From a virus: a stretch of DNA of 64,000 nt. Location: positions 32,001-96,000 of IMG/VR virus record IMGVR_UViG_3300024257_000005; one strand, given 5' to 3'. Made by a program: the position numbers and the translations under genes. The notes beneath the pieces were generated by a model. The model saw nothing but the letters and a program-made list of their open reading frames with translations. It searched no databases and was not told the origin of the DNA. Positions 6,865 to 59,475 of the stretch are shown in pieces; position 1 is the first letter of the stretch; each line of letters begins with the position of its first letter.

Positions 6865-8799
6865 ATGAATTCAGTTTTCGAAAAATTAATCAAGGCATCA
6901 GAAGCTTATTACAATGGTCATCCTATCATGGATGATTCTGAGTTTGATGCTCTTGTAGACATGGTAACAGCCAGTCATCCAAACCATCCCATTCTAAAAA
7001 CAATTGGTGCACCAACCAGGGACGATTCACCTTGGACAAAAAGGTCGCATCAAATTGCCATGGGATCGCTTTCAAAGATCGTTGATGACAACGATTTGGC
7101 AAAATTCATGGACAAACATTATACTGAAAATTTCCGGAAGGAATATGTCTTATCAGAAAAACTTGATGGAATCTCAATTAACTGTGAATATTCAAACGGA
7201 GTTCTTATCCGGGCGATCACTAGAGGTAGTGGAGTTGAGGGTGAAGATATTAAGAGAAACGTTTTGAACATGAATGGTTGCAACCGGGGAATAAGCATCG
7301 ATCGAGATACTTCAGTAAGAGGTGAGATTATTATGCTTGAGGGTGACTTTAAAATTCTCAATCAGATTCTTGTAGCTCTAGGTGAAGAGCCATACAAAAA
7401 TATGAGAAACTGTGTATCTGGAATTGCTAGAAGATTTGATGGAAAATACTCTGAATATCTCACAATCAGATATTACGATACCACAATTGGAGATTTAGAT
7501 AAGGCTGAGAAATTCTGGTGGTTAAAGAATCACGGATTTGATACAGCTGAATTCTATATTGTCAAAACAATGAACGAAATCCAAGCAATTTACCAATCAT
7601 ATGTTGAATCAAAAAGAGAAGGAATTGATTATGAAATTGATGGATTGGTTCTGGAAATATCAGACCGCGATATTAGAAATCGTATGGGATATAAGGATCA
7701 AAAACCTAAGTTTGCCGTGGCTTACAAATTCCCCAGCTTGGCAGCAACAACTACTCTTTTAGATATTGAGTGGAATGTCGGAACTGGTGGTCATATCACT
7801 CCAGTGGCAATTCTCGAACCTGTTCAAATTGGTGGTATTACAATTCGCAGGTCAACATTGCATAATCAGGCAAATGTCAAGGCATTAAATCTTGGATTAA
7901 ATGACACAGTATTGGTTAGCCGAAGGAATGATGTTATTCCTTATGTTGAGAAAGTAATCTACTCGGATAACAATCTTCATTTTAACATTCCTGAATGCTG
8001 CCCTGAATGTAGCGAACCTGCTATTATTGATGGTGCATATCTTGTTTGTGAAAATCCATTATGCAAGGGAAACTTATTAGGATCCTTGATGAAATGGATC
8101 AAAAAGTCTGGAATGGATTCTCTAGGTATGGGTGAGAAGGTTATTGAAAGGGCTTTTGATGCAGAACTAATCACATTCCCAGCCGAACTATACACAATGA
8201 GCACCAATAAGTTCTTACAACTTGAAGGAGTTCAGAACAAATCGGCAACTAAGATGATGAGCATTATTCAATCTCATAGATCATTATCTCTGGCTGATTT
8301 TATTGGTGGATTGAACCTTGGATCATTTGGATCCTCACTGGCTCAAAGATTAGTAGATGCTGGATATGATACTCTTGAAAAAATTCAAGCTCTTACAATT
8401 CCCCAAATGGTTCATGTTGAAGGAATGGGATATAAGAGATCAGGAAATTTCATTGAGAGATTATTTGCAAAAACAAACCAGATCAATAGGCTTCTTGAGC
8501 ATGTCACCATTGAAGAAGAAAAACCTGCTTTAGAAGCAACCGGTGATATATTTAATAACAATAGCTTTTGCTTCACAGGTGCAATCCAAAAGGAAACACC
8601 TGAAGGAAAGAGATTTAATAGGAAGATGATGGAAGCATTGGTTTTTGAAAATGGTGGAAGCACATCATCAGTAAAGAAGGGCCTCACCTATTTGGTACAG
8701 GCTGATCCAGATTCACAATCATCAAAAACAAAGAAGGCAATCTCCTTAGGTGTAGAAATATTAGCCGAATCAGATTTCTTCAAAATGCTGGGAGAATAA
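6865..8799 (+). CDS. ligA: NAD-dependent DNA ligase
   Basis: EKLDG adenylation motif, TRGSG, EIDGLV, zinc finger, HhH repeats and BRCT. Start moved to ATG 6865 after AAGGAG. Confidence 0.96.
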   Translation: MNSVFEKLIKASEAYYNGHPIMDDSEFDALVDMVTASHPNHPILKTIGAPTRDDSPWTKRSHQIAMGSLSKIVDDNDLAKFMDKHYTENFRKEYVLSEKLDGISINCEYSNGVLIRAITRGSGVEGEDIKRNVLNMNGCNRGISIDRDTSVRGEIIMLEGDFKILNQILVALGEEPYKNMRNCVSGIARRFDGKYSEYLTIRYYDTTIGDLDKAEKFWWLKNHGFDTAEFYIVKTMNEIQAIYQSYVESKREGIDYEIDGLVLEISDRDIRNRMGYKDQKPKFAVAYKFPSLAATTTLLDIEWNVGTGGHITPVAILEPVQIGGITIRRSTLHNQANVKALNLGLNDTVLVSRRNDVIPYVEKVIYSDNNLHFNIPECCPECSEPAIIDGAYLVCENPLCKGNLLGSLMKWIKKSGMDSLGMGEKVIERAFDAELITFPAELYTMSTNKFLQLEGVQNKSATKMMSIIQSHRSLSLADFIGGLNLGSFGSSLAQRLVDAGYDTLEKIQALTIPQMVHVEGMGYKRSGNFIERLFAKTNQINRLLEHVTIEEEKPALEATGDIFNNNSFCFTGAIQKETPEGKRFNRKMMEALVFENGGSTSSVKKGLTYLVQADPDSQSSKTKKAISLGVEILAESDFFKMLGE

Positions 8800-9761: not shown

Positions 9762-11108
9762 ATGACTGACGTAGCAAAAAAGACTGAAACAAAAAAGAAA
9801 AAATTACTAGTTCTATCAGACGACATTCGTGTCCCATCAGGTGTGGGCACAATGACAAGACGAATCGTCTTAGACTTAAAGAAAGACTTTGATATAATCC
9901 AGCTTGGTGGAGCAATAGATCATCCGAATCCTCAACCTGTATTAGTAGATGGAATAAAAGTAATCCCAGTAAAAGGGTATGGCGATTCTCATATCGTTAG
10001 AAATTTAATCACAGTGGAACAACCAGACTATATGTTGATCTTTACAGATCCAAGGTACTGAATTTGGTTATGGCAGATCGAAGATGAAATCAGATCTATG
10101 GTTCCCTTAATGTATTATCATCTATGGGATGACTATCCTGCACCACAATATAATAGAGATTTTTATCTATCGAATGACTGGATGGGTTGTATCAGTAAAA
10201 TTTCAAAAGCAATGGTAGAGGAAGTGGCACCAGAATTTAAAGAGAATCCATGGCGCATAGACTATATTCCTCATGGCACTCCTCACGATGAATTTAAACA
10301 GGTTGACAAATCGTCTGTTGAATATCAGAAGTTCATACGTGAATACTACAAGGGTGAATATGAAAAGTATGATTTTATAATTTTTTATAACAATCGTAAT
10401 GTAAGAAGAAAAATGATGGGTGATGTTATGAATGCCTATGATGAATTCCTCAGTACACTACCACAGGAAAAGCAAGACAAATGTTTGCTATTAATGCACA
10501 CTCATGTTTCCGACGACAATGGAACAAATCTTGCAGCACTGAAAAACGACTTATATCCAAACCACAATATTCTATTTAGTGAAGCTAAAGTTCATACAAA
10601 CATTTTGAATTTCATCTATAACTCAGTAGATGTCACGATCAATCTTGCCTCAAATGAAGGTTATGGAATGGCAACGGCTGAATCACTTATGGCCGGCACT
10701 CCAATCATTGCCACAATTACAGGTGGAATGCAAGATCAATTAGGCATTCCCTTTGAGAATGATTTTATGTCAGTTGATGAATGGAAAGTATTGCAAGAGA
10801 ATGGTGAGTCATTTTTGACCTCACATCATGCTGTTGGTATTATTCCAAAAACTAGAAGCCTCCAGGGATCACCTCCAACTCCATATATCTATGATGATAG
10901 AATTAGTTGGATTGATGCTGCGCATGCTATTGAATATTGGTACAACAAGACACCAGAAGAGCGTGTTAAAGCAGGCGAATCAGGACGTCAATATTTAATC
11001 GAAAATGGTCACACAGTAACAGAAATGAACAAGCGTTTTAGGGCAGCAATTAAAGACATTGATGAAAATTGGGAACCCATTAAACGTGTAAATGTAATCG
11101 AGTGCTAA
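9762..11108 (+). CDS. GT-B (GT4-like) glycosyltransferase, one gene across in-frame TGA 10059-10061
   Basis: ORFs 9762..10061 and 10098..11108 are in one frame. The join reads FTDPRY[TGA]IWLWQIEDEIRSMVPLMYYHLWDD. EGYGMATAES motif present. Confidence 0.88.
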
Positions 11109-32582: not shown

Positions 32583-32886
32583 ATGGAATGATATTTAATA
32601 ATAATTCCTCTAGTTTGACTACTTAGTGGTCCAGCTAGAGGAAGAATAAATAATTGACAAAGGAAAAAATAAACTAGGCTTTTTGAAAACTACGTTATAT
32701 TTATATATATGAAAAGAATTACAAACATATTATCCCGTTATTTTAGTAGACAACTCTGGTTGGGTTGTGGGGCGTGTTCGTTATGTGATAGTGTCTCAAC
32801 ACCAAAACATAATGCCATTGCTCGCAATGACGAACAACCTAGGGAGCCTTTTGTGTAACGATTAATACAATCATATAGATTTACAT

Positions 32887-35016: not shown

Positions 35017-35103
35017 GTGCATGTGGCAGATAGGTAATGCGCCTGGCCGTGGCCCAGGTTGGATAATATCCTCATGCGGGTTCAAATCCCGTCGTGCACC
35101 CCA
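35017..35103 (+). tRNA. tRNA-His(GUG) with long variable arm
   Basis: GTGCATG/CGTGCAC, C73, encoded CCA; loop CCGTGGC; 17-nt variable region. Confidence 0.82.
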
Positions 35104-37162: not shown

Positions 37163-37216
37163 CAATCAAAACCATTTTTATAGTTCGAGTATATTTATAT
37201 TAAACAGGAGAATAAT

Positions 37217-37894
37217 ATGAATATATGTGAAAATTGCAAACAAGAGCATGATGGACAATATGGATCTGGTAGATTCTGTTCAGATAAATGTGCAAGAGGA
37301 TTTAGCACTAAGGCAAAAAGAAAAAACATTAATGAAAAAGTATCTAGAAAATTAAAAATTAATAAACCAATCAGATTCTGTAAGATCTGCAATGTAGAAA
37401 TTGGATCTAGAACGCAGCTTGGATATTGTCAAAAACACCTATATGAAAGTGAAGAATATAGATCTCTATTAAGAAAGCCCCATAAATCAGGGTCTGGTGG
37501 TTTGAGAACAGGTGGAGGAAGATCAAAGGTGTTTGAATATGATAGTAAATATGCTGGGTTAGTTAAGCTAAATAAACATGAAATTGAAGTTGCAAAAATA
37601 TTTGACTCATTAGAGATATTATGAAATCGTAACTGAAAAGGTTTTAGATATGTCGATCTAGAAGGTAGAGATAGAAAATATTATCCCGATTTCTATATTC
37701 CAGAATTTGATTATTATGTCGAATATAAAGGATGAGTTAATGTAGTTTTAAATCATAAGATGAACAATGCTGTTGAGCTTAATGATTTTAAATTATTAAT
37801 TATATATAGCGACGACAAGCGATACAGCCAGCTTGGACTATCGTTGTCAGAGCTTAAAAAATGTCCTCAAAAACTAATTAGAGGTATCGGTTAA
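37217..37894 (+). CDS. Zinc-finger plus PD-(D/E)xK (homing-type) endonuclease, 225 aa, with three in-frame TGA (37622, 37634, 37733)
   Basis: EIL[TGA]NRN[TGA]KGFRY..RKYYPDFYIPEFDYYVEYKG[TGA]. The catalytic PDF..EYK motif lies beyond the ORF-track stop. Confidence 0.85.
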
Positions 37895-37951
37895 TTGGCA
37901 AACCAACGCTCTCCAAAAGCGTGACTGGGAGTTCGAGTCTCTCTACCTCTG
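37880..37951 (+). tRNA. tRNA-Trp(CCA) with C9
   Basis: AGAGGTA TC GGTT AATTGGCA AACC A ACGCT CTCCAAA AGCGT GACT GGGAG TTCGAGT CTCTC TACCTCT G. Confidence 0.93.
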
Positions 37952-38014
37952 CAATATGTAAGTCCTATTATGGATGGCACCAATCAATAGTCCGTTCATT
38001 CTAGGCAATAATTT

Positions 38015-38102
38015 GCTCCGTTAGCTCAGTCCGGTATAGAGCGCCTGCCTTACAAGCAGGAGGCCTCCTAGGTTTACCTTGGTTCAAATCCAAGACGGAG
38101 TA
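38015..38102 (+). tRNA. tRNA-Val(UAC) with long variable arm
   Basis: GCTCCGT/ACGGAGT, loop CTTACAA; variable region AGGCCT-CCT-AGGTTT-AC. Confidence 0.85.
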
Positions 38103-38164
38103 CAAATAACTGTTTTATTCTCGCTGTTCTGGTGTATATTCTACCAACAACAAAAGGAGTTGAC

Positions 38165-55033: not shown

Positions 55034-55813
55034 ATGTCTGACATTGTAAAATATATCAAAGATTTTGAGAAAGAGAAATTGCTCTACCTTGTTCTTGCAG
55101 GGTCACGAGGATATTCAACTCACACAGATGAGTCTGACTATGATTATCGTGGGGTGTTTGTGAATACTAAGGAAGAAGTAATTGGTAGCCTAACGCGAGA
55201 TAAACAAAAATACTGGCCTGACACTGAAGATGCAATGCTCCATGGTTTGCAAAAATTTGTTAAGCTGGCCTCAAATGCAAGTCCTAATGTCATTGAACTT
55301 TTATTCATGAATGGTACGGCAGAATATATTCATCCCTTGTTTGCAAAATGGTTCCTTGACAATCGTGATGACTTTTTATCTCTAAAATGCTATAATAGTT
55401 ACTCAGGATATGCTTGGGGACAGGTTCAACAAAGCAAGCATAAGTCTTCTCATGGATCCTTACGTGAAAAATATAAATGTGGAGATCCTCAAGATCCATA
55501 TGATTCAAAATATGCAATGCACACAATTCGCATGATGTATAATGGATTAGAAATTATTCAGACTGGGATGTTAACTCCAAATTTCAAGGATAGCGGCCTT
55601 CTTACCGTTTTACAAGAGATTCGGAAAGGTGATTTCTATAAAAATGCTACTGAATTTTATCAGCATGTAGAAAGCCTTGATGCTGACATTAAAAAATCAC
55701 ATGAGCATGCTTCAATTGGAAAGTGGCTTCGTGAAGAACCAAGTCGGGATCGGATGAATGAATTACTAATTGGATTCTATGAAGAACTTTGGTATTCAAA
55801 ATGAAATATATAA
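55034..55813 (+). CDS. Pol-beta superfamily nucleotidyltransferase (RlaP-like); ends 55804 if TGA terminates
   Basis: GSRGY..SDYDYRGVF, PNVIELL and KYAMHTIR motifs. Confidence 0.85.
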
Positions 55814-57541: not shown

Positions 57542-58354
57542 ATGAACACTACTCAAAGAGTGGGCACTCAGCCCGAAGCACACATTTCAATTGACAAAAA
57601 CAGATTACAAAGATTCCGTGGAAAAGTATATCTTTCTGACAAAGCCAAGTTTGAGATTGAACTATTCAATCCAACTCAGCGCCGTTATGGAGTCAAATTT
57701 CTATTCAATGGGGAATACATGTCTAATCGACATTTGATCATAGACCCAGGCCAACGTATTTTTCTGGACAGGTTTATTGAAACAAAGAAACGATTTGAAT
57801 TTAACACATATGAAGTGGATGATTCACCAGCTGCAAAAGCAGCAATCAGTAAGAATGGATTAATAGAGGTAGAATTTCATCAAGAAAACGATCCTATTCC
57901 TCTATTGAATAACACAACCAACTGGCCAGCACAGTTTACATATACTGGAGATTGGTTTGGATTTCACGGCAATACATTTGATCAGTACAATACGACAATA
58001 AGCAACAGTGGTGGAATATCAGAAAATACTACTGTAAATTATTGCAGCACCAATCTCAATCAGAGTCCAAAGAAGAACGCTAGACATAAGCTGATGAGAT
58101 CAATGGCAGCACCAGAGCCAATTGAGACAGGAAGGATTAATAAGTCGAATGAAAATTCTAATCAAGAATTTCAAAGTGTTGAGGCTGATTTTAACTGGAT
58201 TGTAGATACAAAGGTTGTTTTGCAATTACTTCCAATTAGTCTTCAACCAGCCAATCAAAGAGACTTGGTGCAGTATTGTCCTGTTGATGGCACTAAATTC
58301 AAAAAGGGATATAATTTCTGTCCCAAATGTGGAAAGGCTAAAGATTGAAAATAA
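57542..58354 (+). CDS. Conserved hypothetical protein with C-terminal zinc ribbon (ends 58348 if TGA terminates)
   Basis: AAGGAG RBS; EIELFNP and FCPKCG. Confidence 0.7.
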
Positions 58355-59117: not shown

Positions 59118-59475
59118 GGGGCCGACCTGGATTCGACGGGATGATTTTTGACAATAAGTGCAAGTAGACAGAGTGAGTCTTAAAAACTAAACAACCAGAG
59201 ATAACTGGCACAAACTACGCAATCGCAGCCTAAGGAATTAGGCAGCCGTTAGCTCCACGACTTCGATAATGGAGGTCTAACGTCGTTTTCGAATAGGTAT
59301 TTATGCAACAAGTTTCACCGAATTGAAACTGGATCACTGCGGCCATGAGTATACATGCCGATAAGATTTGTTGGAGTTCTAAATTCGTATTAATTGAAAG
59401 AAACCAACTAAACTTGTGAACGACTTGTTGAAGGAAGCTTTGCGGACGGGAGTTCGATTCTCCCCGGCTCCACCA
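59118..59475 (+). ncRNA. ssrA: tmRNA; tag (A)GTNYAIAA* at 59207-59233
   Basis: GGGGCCGA..GGATTCGAC 5' end, G3:U70, T-arm GGGAG-TTCGATT-CTCCC, ACCA end; ATAACT precedes the resume codon. Confidence 0.95.

Follow-up and report, generated by a model that had tools for sequence, protein, structure and literature searches.

A probable homing-type nuclease from a phage tRNA-array family, written with TGA as an ordinary tryptophan codon

Among the closest described systems is the free-standing nuclease SegB of phage T4, which recognises a conserved tRNA T-arm motif and achieves near-100% inheritance of its own gene together with the surrounding tRNA genes (PMC2330249). Block-wise TGA-to-Trp recoding is known from gut phages, and in the TGA-recoded Agate phages a group I intron endonuclease prefers TGA over TGG (p = 1.3e-3), a preference that Borges et al. 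proposed to hold the nuclease back until late infection (bioRxiv 10.1101/2021.08.26.457843). As for UGA decoding by tRNA-Trp(CCA), either of two body changes, A9C or G24A (Hirsh), lets the E. coli tRNA read UGA, and Ca. [quoted passage not shown]

Here we compare with these systems a nuclease gene that lies in the tRNA array of a myovirus distant from T4. The window analysed is a stretch of 64,000 nucleotides, bases 32001-96000 of a 105,677-bp IMG/VR virus record; positions are those of the window unless marked as genome. Like SegB, the nuclease is encoded by a free-standing gene inside a phage tRNA array, and its family is equally array-resident and patchy. Unlike SegB, which is a GIY-YIG enzyme, it combines N-terminal zinc ribbons with a PD-(D/E)xK domain; its ORF ends within the downstream tRNA gene, and its family is known from sequence, whereas SegB homing has been measured. 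By analogy, the nuclease may work like SegB without belonging to the SegB/GIY-YIG class. With the Agate endonuclease it shares the homing-endonuclease type, a code-4 phage as carrier and the use of TGA for Trp amid standard-code genes, but it is free-standing in a tRNA array rather than intron-encoded, and no suppressor tRNA(UCA) was found on the contig studied here, which is ~50% complete. The homing endonucleases I-Bth0305I and I-Ssp6803I have the PD-(D/E)xK catalytic fold in common with it. They differ in being intron-encoded (I-Ssp6803I is located in a tRNA-fMet intron) and in having other DNA-binding modules, and no membership of a common family is detectable at the sequence level. Lastly, the tRNA-Trp gene adjoining the nuclease gene resembles the Hirsh and A9C tRNAs of E. 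coli and the Zinderia and Blastocrithidia tRNAs in its CCA anticodon; it has C9, and its genome decodes UGA as Trp. Unlike them, it has a C9 that is natural for its D-arm type, a G:C pair at 11:24 and a 5-bp anticodon stem. Each element of the locus has a published precedent; what is new is the strict tRNA-array residence of the family and its borrowed stop codons.

The ORF at 37217-37894 is uninterrupted only when TGA is read as sense, and it contains no TGG codon. The gene is present in a single copy in the contig, and a megablast search with this region found no match in the GenBank phage collection. An earlier note, made from the letters of this DNA alone, had described a promoter motif, a zinc-finger/PD-(D/E)xK nuclease in which all three Trp positions are TGA, two of them ahead of the catalytic motif, and a 15-nt overlap with tRNA-Trp. 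All of these descriptions were borne out, the overlap by ARAGORN and Rfam and the others by the evidence given below (Table 1).

Table 1. Features of the nuclease locus and codon usage of the contig (window coordinates unless marked as genome)
Feature	Position	Strand	Basis or remark
Promoter-like motif TATATTTATA	37190..37199	+	27 nt 5' of start codon
Shine-Dalgarno-like AGGAG	37206..37210	+	read from sequence
Homing-endonuclease-like gene, 225 aa, TGA = Trp	37217..37894	+	translation; ATG at 37217
Putative zinc ribbon 1, FCS-like (C4, C7, C21, C25)	37226..37291	+	four Cys invariant
Putative zinc ribbon 2 (C55, C58, C71, H74)	37379..37438	+	C55, C58, C71 invariant
Predicted PD-(D/E)xK nuclease domain, residues 101-225	37517..37891	+	AlphaFold2 model, structural and profile matches
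TGA codon 136	37622..37624	+	invariant Trp column
TGA codon 140	37634..37636	+	column is Trp in about half of the homologues
Predicted catalytic motif P-D158...E169-x-K171	37688..37729	+	alignment conservation
TGA codon 173	37733..37735	+	nearly invariant Trp column
Nuclease/tRNA overlap, 15 nt	37880..37894	+	last four sense codons and TAA = tRNA nt 1-15
Nuclease stop codon TAA	37892..37894	+	tRNA-Trp nt 13-15
tRNA-Trp, anticodon CCA	37880..37952	+	ARAGORN; Rfam tRNA model 55.6 bits
Late tail/baseplate block	genome 96.8-105.5 kb plus 0.25-12.3 kb		TGA : TGG 35 : 51; TGA = 41% of Trp codons
Rest of contig, nuclease excluded			TGA : TGG 25 : 349

The motif upstream of the nuclease gene, TATATTTATA at 37190, is a real strand-specific intergenic signal that recurs in the genome. 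Intergenic DNA makes up only ~10% of the contig, and yet 16 of the 18 plus-strand copies of TATATTTA in the genome are intergenic, mostly lying 19-82 nt upstream of a start codon. Copies lie upstream of the tail sheath gene and of the nuclease gene, ahead of the start of the tRNA array, and upstream of the gene immediately before the tmRNA. Since TATATTTATA is found upstream of TGA-free genes as well, it is not a marker of a late class. In the form TATATTTAT[A/T/C], the motif occurs in 16 intergenic plus-strand copies genome-wide (window positions 32696, 37190, 42685, 57433 and 58632 among them), often with TTTG ~15-20 nt upstream. A sigma-70 consensus scan gave no plus-strand site at 37190-37199, and the number of sites that it returned was not above that in shuffled sequence.

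Databases yielded 279 homologues of the encoded protein, and many of these match over the full length with 50-62% identity. Across an alignment of the nuclease with 21 homologues (22 sequences), Trp never varies at position 136, is nearly invariant at 173 and is found in about half of the sequences at 140; the three TGA codons of the nuclease therefore occupy Trp columns. Two of them, W136 and W140, lie upstream of the catalytic D158...E169-x-K171. P157, D158, F159 and E122 are invariant, and E169 and K171 are conserved to at least 90%. AlphaFold2 modelled the protein with pLDDT averaging 84 and exceeding 90 over most of the nuclease domain. Foldseek against the PDB gave weak E-values only, and the fold of the nuclease domain was settled by VIA-align of residues 101-225, which matched Bax1 (Z 9.6), the catalytic domain of the I-Bth0305I homing endonuclease (Z 8.5, rmsd 2.5 over 86 residues), Vsr (Z 8.4), TnsA (Z 7.8) and T7 endonuclease I (Z 5.9). 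The family profile also matches T7 endonuclease I (E 0.0015), and the PHROG annotations for the nuclease are 'Holliday junction resolvase' and 'endonuclease'. For the zinc-binding part, the family gave weak PDB profile matches to FCS zinc fingers. Pfam holds no family for the nuclease, and neither Pfam nor PHROGs gave a GIY-YIG match. The predicted core fold and the D...(D/E)-x-K residues are both present, which would place the protein in the PD-(D/E)xK superfamily.

The phage reads TGA as Trp, heavily in the tail/baseplate block and rarely elsewhere, which is the block-wise recoding known from gut phages (bioRxiv 10.1101/2021.08.26.457843). A gene-by-gene count over the 105.7-kb contig gave 63 in-frame TGA against 400 TGG codons. 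About 25 genes bear TGA, the nuclease gene being one of them, and at least 60 of the in-frame TGAs lie outside it. Products of the TGA-rich block include tail sheath, baseplate wedge and head-tail adaptor proteins, and outside the window long, well-scoring ORFs are broken by TGA. In the tail sheath, TGA563 aligns with a Trp that is invariant in the sheaths of Microcystis phage Mel-JY01 and Flavobacterium phage immuto. TGA is required as a stop by no gene of the contig. In a code-4 phage, essential genes are expected to have TGA where Trp is conserved, and such codons were found at W563 of the sheath, as they were at W136 and W173 of the nuclease. PHROG scans of further TGA-bearing genes beyond the late block returned nothing informative. 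Relatives of the tail sheath in IMG/VR reached at most 52% identity (best segment), with no in-frame TGA where the match was single-frame, and an IMG/VR scan with a 714-aa neighbouring protein found no close relatives. In two genes a TAA comes one or two codons after a TGA (window positions 55802-55804 and 58346-58348), an arrangement that fits back-up stops where TGA is read through.

A search of the contig for a dedicated UGA reader, using ARAGORN (default, intron-aware and relaxed) and Rfam, found no tRNA(UCA), and neither a release factor nor TrpRS was found on this ~50% complete contig. The record is linear and its CheckV completeness is ~50%, so the absence of tRNA(UCA) is weak evidence. 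No capsid or terminase match was obtained on the contig, and a portal match stayed below threshold. One ORF continues in frame from the end of the contig into its start (G000:C1:105543-105677 joined to 1-246). Despite this junction-spanning ORF, we rejected a circular complete genome: the record has no terminal repeat and no capsid or terminase match, and CheckV puts it at 50%.

Taken together, we think it probable that the gene is a homing-type nuclease of a tRNA-array family residing in a TGA = Trp phage, with its TGAs serving as sense codons and its adjacency to tRNA-Trp inherited. On this account the nuclease would be the product of a free-standing gene of the homing-endonuclease type, with two N-terminal, DNA-binding zinc ribbons ahead of a PD-(D/E)xK domain at the C terminus. 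Members of its family would insert flush at the 5' end of a tRNA gene and often end at a stop codon that lies within nt 1-16 of that gene. The three TGAs would be ordinary sense codons of the phage's own code, and the position beside tRNA-Trp would be an insertion-site choice inherited from the family, with no link to suppression. With TGA at three of three Trp codons, full-length nuclease would be made only during active UGA decoding. Such codons could delay or limit production of a potentially toxic nuclease, as proposed for the Agate phage intron endonuclease, and the TGA density could reflect the strong A/T bias of the gene at third codon positions. Two readings of the three-of-three usage fit: either the nuclease is kept untranslated until UGA decoding, or the usage reflects A/T drift in a gene that is dispensable early; the timing of nuclease expression is something that we only infer. 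If the preferred account holds, this would be a second, independent homing-type nuclease preferentially written in TGA within a code-4 phage, and would lend support to the view that selfish or toxic genes can be gated by recoding.

How unusual the three TGA codons are depends on the yardstick. Against the middle region (25 TGA : 349 TGG) the probability of three TGA among three Trp codons is ~3e-4, and against the late block (35 : 51) it is ~0.07, so that the usage is only marginally unusual relative to the late block. The TGA density might thus have no regulatory meaning, having arisen by neutral third-position A/T drift in a weakly expressed selfish gene after TGA and TGG had become synonyms, or through recent arrival from a more heavily TGA-recoded phage. 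We regard this as rather unlikely, even though, besides the non-significant comparison with the late block, the mobility of the nuclease family and the base composition of the gene speak for it (GC3 of 0.20 against a genome mean of 0.284, sd 0.045, ~1.9 sd low). No TGA-bearing homologue that could have been the donor is present among the 57 IMG/VR loci described below. Moreover, the array genes around the nuclease gene are nearly TGA-free, which argues for selection against TGA in that part of the genome, a selection that the nuclease gene has escaped.

The wider family was collected by scanning IMG/VR with the family alignment, which gave 294 confirmed stretches, 78 loci being kept. At 57 loci the match extends into the nuclease domain, and every one of them has tRNA genes within 1-1.5 kb; tRNA arrays are also found at 20 of the 21 loci with a match to the zinc module only. 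The closest homologues (41-56% identity) mostly adjoin tRNA-Trp directly. At 14 loci the homologue ORF ends inside the downstream tRNA gene or at most 3 nt from it, the downstream partners being tRNA-Trp, Asp, Thr, Glu and Gly and, in L007, a Trp-like tRNA(UCA). The stop codon commonly occupies nt 1-3, 8-10 or 12-16 of the tRNA, and overlaps measure 14 nt (L007), 15 nt (L008, L024) or 16 nt (L025, L027). In-frame TGA is found in none of the 57 homologues, which use TGG. Since both the overlap and the adjacency to tRNA-Trp occur in TGG-only homologues, they predate recoding and stand apart from it. The overlap, which the earlier note had taken as the sign of a self-contained module, loses that meaning, because TGG-only homologues overlap tRNA genes too, non-Trp ones included. 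It is conceivable, though improbable, that RNase P cleavage at the 5' end of the tRNA would strip the stop codon from the nuclease message and leave a non-stop mRNA to be handled by the phage tmRNA.

Within syntenic or related arrays the slot taken by the nuclease gene varies: it lies between tRNA-Trp and tRNA-Ala in L013-15, between Lys and Asp in L025 and between Ile and Val in L037. This variable slot is the patchy pattern that would be expected of a mobile gene; for the window's own array, no empty-site allele was found. Some proteins with HNH (PF01844, PF13392) or DUF559-type (PF04480) domains carry the N-terminal zinc module in front of these, at 70-85% identity, and module shuffling of this kind is typical of homing endonucleases. 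Both a variable slot and a shuffled predicted DNA-binding module, the features that would mark a free-standing homing endonuclease, are present. From its sequences, the family looks to be an uncharacterised one of zinc ribbons joined to a PD-(D/E)xK nuclease, resident exclusively in phage tRNA arrays, and it is a candidate tool and marker for the shuffling of tRNA arrays between phages.

Strict confinement to tRNA arrays could also be read as the sign of a protein that acts on tRNA or other RNA, for example in processing, repair or counter-defence of the array products, and that is not a homing endonuclease. The fold matches do include RAP/FAST domains, which are RNA-binding relatives of PD-(D/E)xK nucleases, and the tRNA-splicing endonuclease, but the best of them are DNA nucleases. 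The variable slot and patchy presence within syntenic arrays also count against an RNA role, as does the DNA-binding zinc module, which moves between HNH and other classes of nuclease as in known homing endonucleases. We therefore hold a function on RNA to be distinctly unlikely.

Next to be weighed is the proposal of the earlier note, a self-contained cassette in which the linked C9 tRNA-Trp is a UGA suppressor that gates the nuclease, and in which homing spreads the suppressor allele and so drives the code change. The linked tRNA has U8-C9, a D-stem of GGUU/AACC, a 5-bp anticodon stem, G73 and a G:C pair at 11:24, and is the only tRNA-Trp on the contig, where tRNA(UCA) was not found. In the nuclease ORF, C9 falls at the third position of an Ile codon, where A9 would be synonymous, so that the ORF does not impose C9. 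That the nuclease requires UGA to be read as Trp speaks for the proposal, as do the UGA reading by E. coli tRNA-Trp(CCA) with A9C or G24A (PMC13092985) and the capacity of SegB to spread flanking tRNA genes (PMC2330249). Ca. Zinderia insecticola, which has undergone UGA-to-Trp reassignment, offers a further parallel: its only tRNA-Trp is of the CCA type, without tRNA(UCA), and UGA is presumably decoded by that CCA tRNA.

Comparison of position 9 across bacteria tells against the proposal. Scanning bacterial species genomes for an identical D-arm gave 38 matches, of which 37 were scorable, and 35 of these 37 tRNA-Trp(CCA) genes have U8-C9. They come from at least eight phyla, with Saccharibacteria, other Patescibacteria, Elusimicrobia, Omnitrophota, Chloroflexaceae, Planctomycetaceae and other groups as sources. 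In the bacterial genome contigs L088-L125, tRNA-Trp(CCA) with the D-arm GGUUAAUUGGCAAACC and U8-C9 is nearly unchanged across many distant phyla. TGA is the stop codon of 66 of the 239 long ORFs in the DNA flanking the same-D-arm genes, and one such tRNA stands at the canonical tRNA-Trp-secE-nusG-rplK-rplA locus, adjoining a hisG that ends in TGA. C9 is thus what standard-code bacteria normally have with a D-arm of this type, and it does not single out a suppressor. The linked tRNA, judged by its sequence, appears to have no A9C- or Hirsh-type body change that ordinary tRNA-Trp lacks. C9 in a tRNA-Trp is by itself no evidence for UGA suppression, and a tempting but weak inference is thereby removed.

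The phage relatives lead to the same result. C9 occurs in none of the 24 tRNA-Trp genes that adjoin homologous nucleases. Conversely, three metagenome contigs (L085-L087) carry in nuclease-free phage arrays a C9 tRNA-Trp that is 91% identical to the linked one, with compensatory stem changes, 3 nt downstream of tRNA-Arg and with no nuclease nearby. These contigs share no proteins with the phage contig, and exact-pattern scans of IMG/VR for the linked tRNA gave no match. In L085-L087 a tmRNA gene is located within the tRNA array. The association that a code change driven by homing should leave among relatives with and without the nuclease, in tRNA-Trp position 9 and in TGA usage, was absent in both directions.

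L007 (IMGVR_UViG_3300035698_008758, 10001-10757) comes closest to the proposed pairing, since its homologue, 46% identical, adjoins the Trp-like UCA tRNA and overlaps it. That homologue is TGG-only, and the visible genes of L007 give no clear sign of recoding. A comparison of ORF lengths at related loci under codes 11 and 4, crude and noisy as it was, likewise gave no recoding call. L007 also has a tRNA(CUA) at 7828-7901.

Given the ~60 other TGAs of the genome the decoding system is not local, and the self-contained module of the earlier note does not hold; we see very little chance that the linked tRNA gates the nuclease as a cassette, even allowing that tRNA(UCA) may lie off this half-complete contig. 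Of its individual claims, dependence of the nuclease on a linked suppressor survives in part: W136 is invariant and upstream of the catalytic residues, so UGA must be read as Trp, but the C9 invoked for the tRNA is ordinary in bacteria that stop at TGA. Spread of a neighbouring tRNA by homing is possible in principle, as for T4 SegB (PMC2330249), but not the drive of a suppressor allele that was built upon it. A more specific version, equally improbable in our view, would have the nuclease home to the 5' boundary of tRNA-Trp and co-convert the tRNA, whose abundant C9 form would act as a near-cognate UGA reader in an A9-type host and make the pair a mobile, recoding-seeding cassette. If true, such a nuclease-tRNA cassette could seed TGA-to-Trp recoding in other phages.

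Finally, we give almost no credence to a dead homing endonuclease gene inactivated by three nonsense mutations, since, although table 11 puts a stop at codon 136 and such genes frequently decay, all three stops are TGA and fall exactly on Trp columns, there is no frameshift and no TAA or TAG, the catalytic and zinc-binding residues are intact, homologues align end to end, and reading TGA as Trp is required for many essential genes besides, that of the tail sheath included.

Other RNA genes of the window include a tmRNA at 59118-59475 with the tag peptide GTNYAIAA (ARAGORN). Two tRNA genes are long, namely tRNA-Val(tac) at 38015-38103 (89 nt; Rfam tRNA model 62 bits) and tRNA-His(gtg) at 35017-35103 (87 nt; 49 bits), and their surplus bases may form a long variable arm or an insert.
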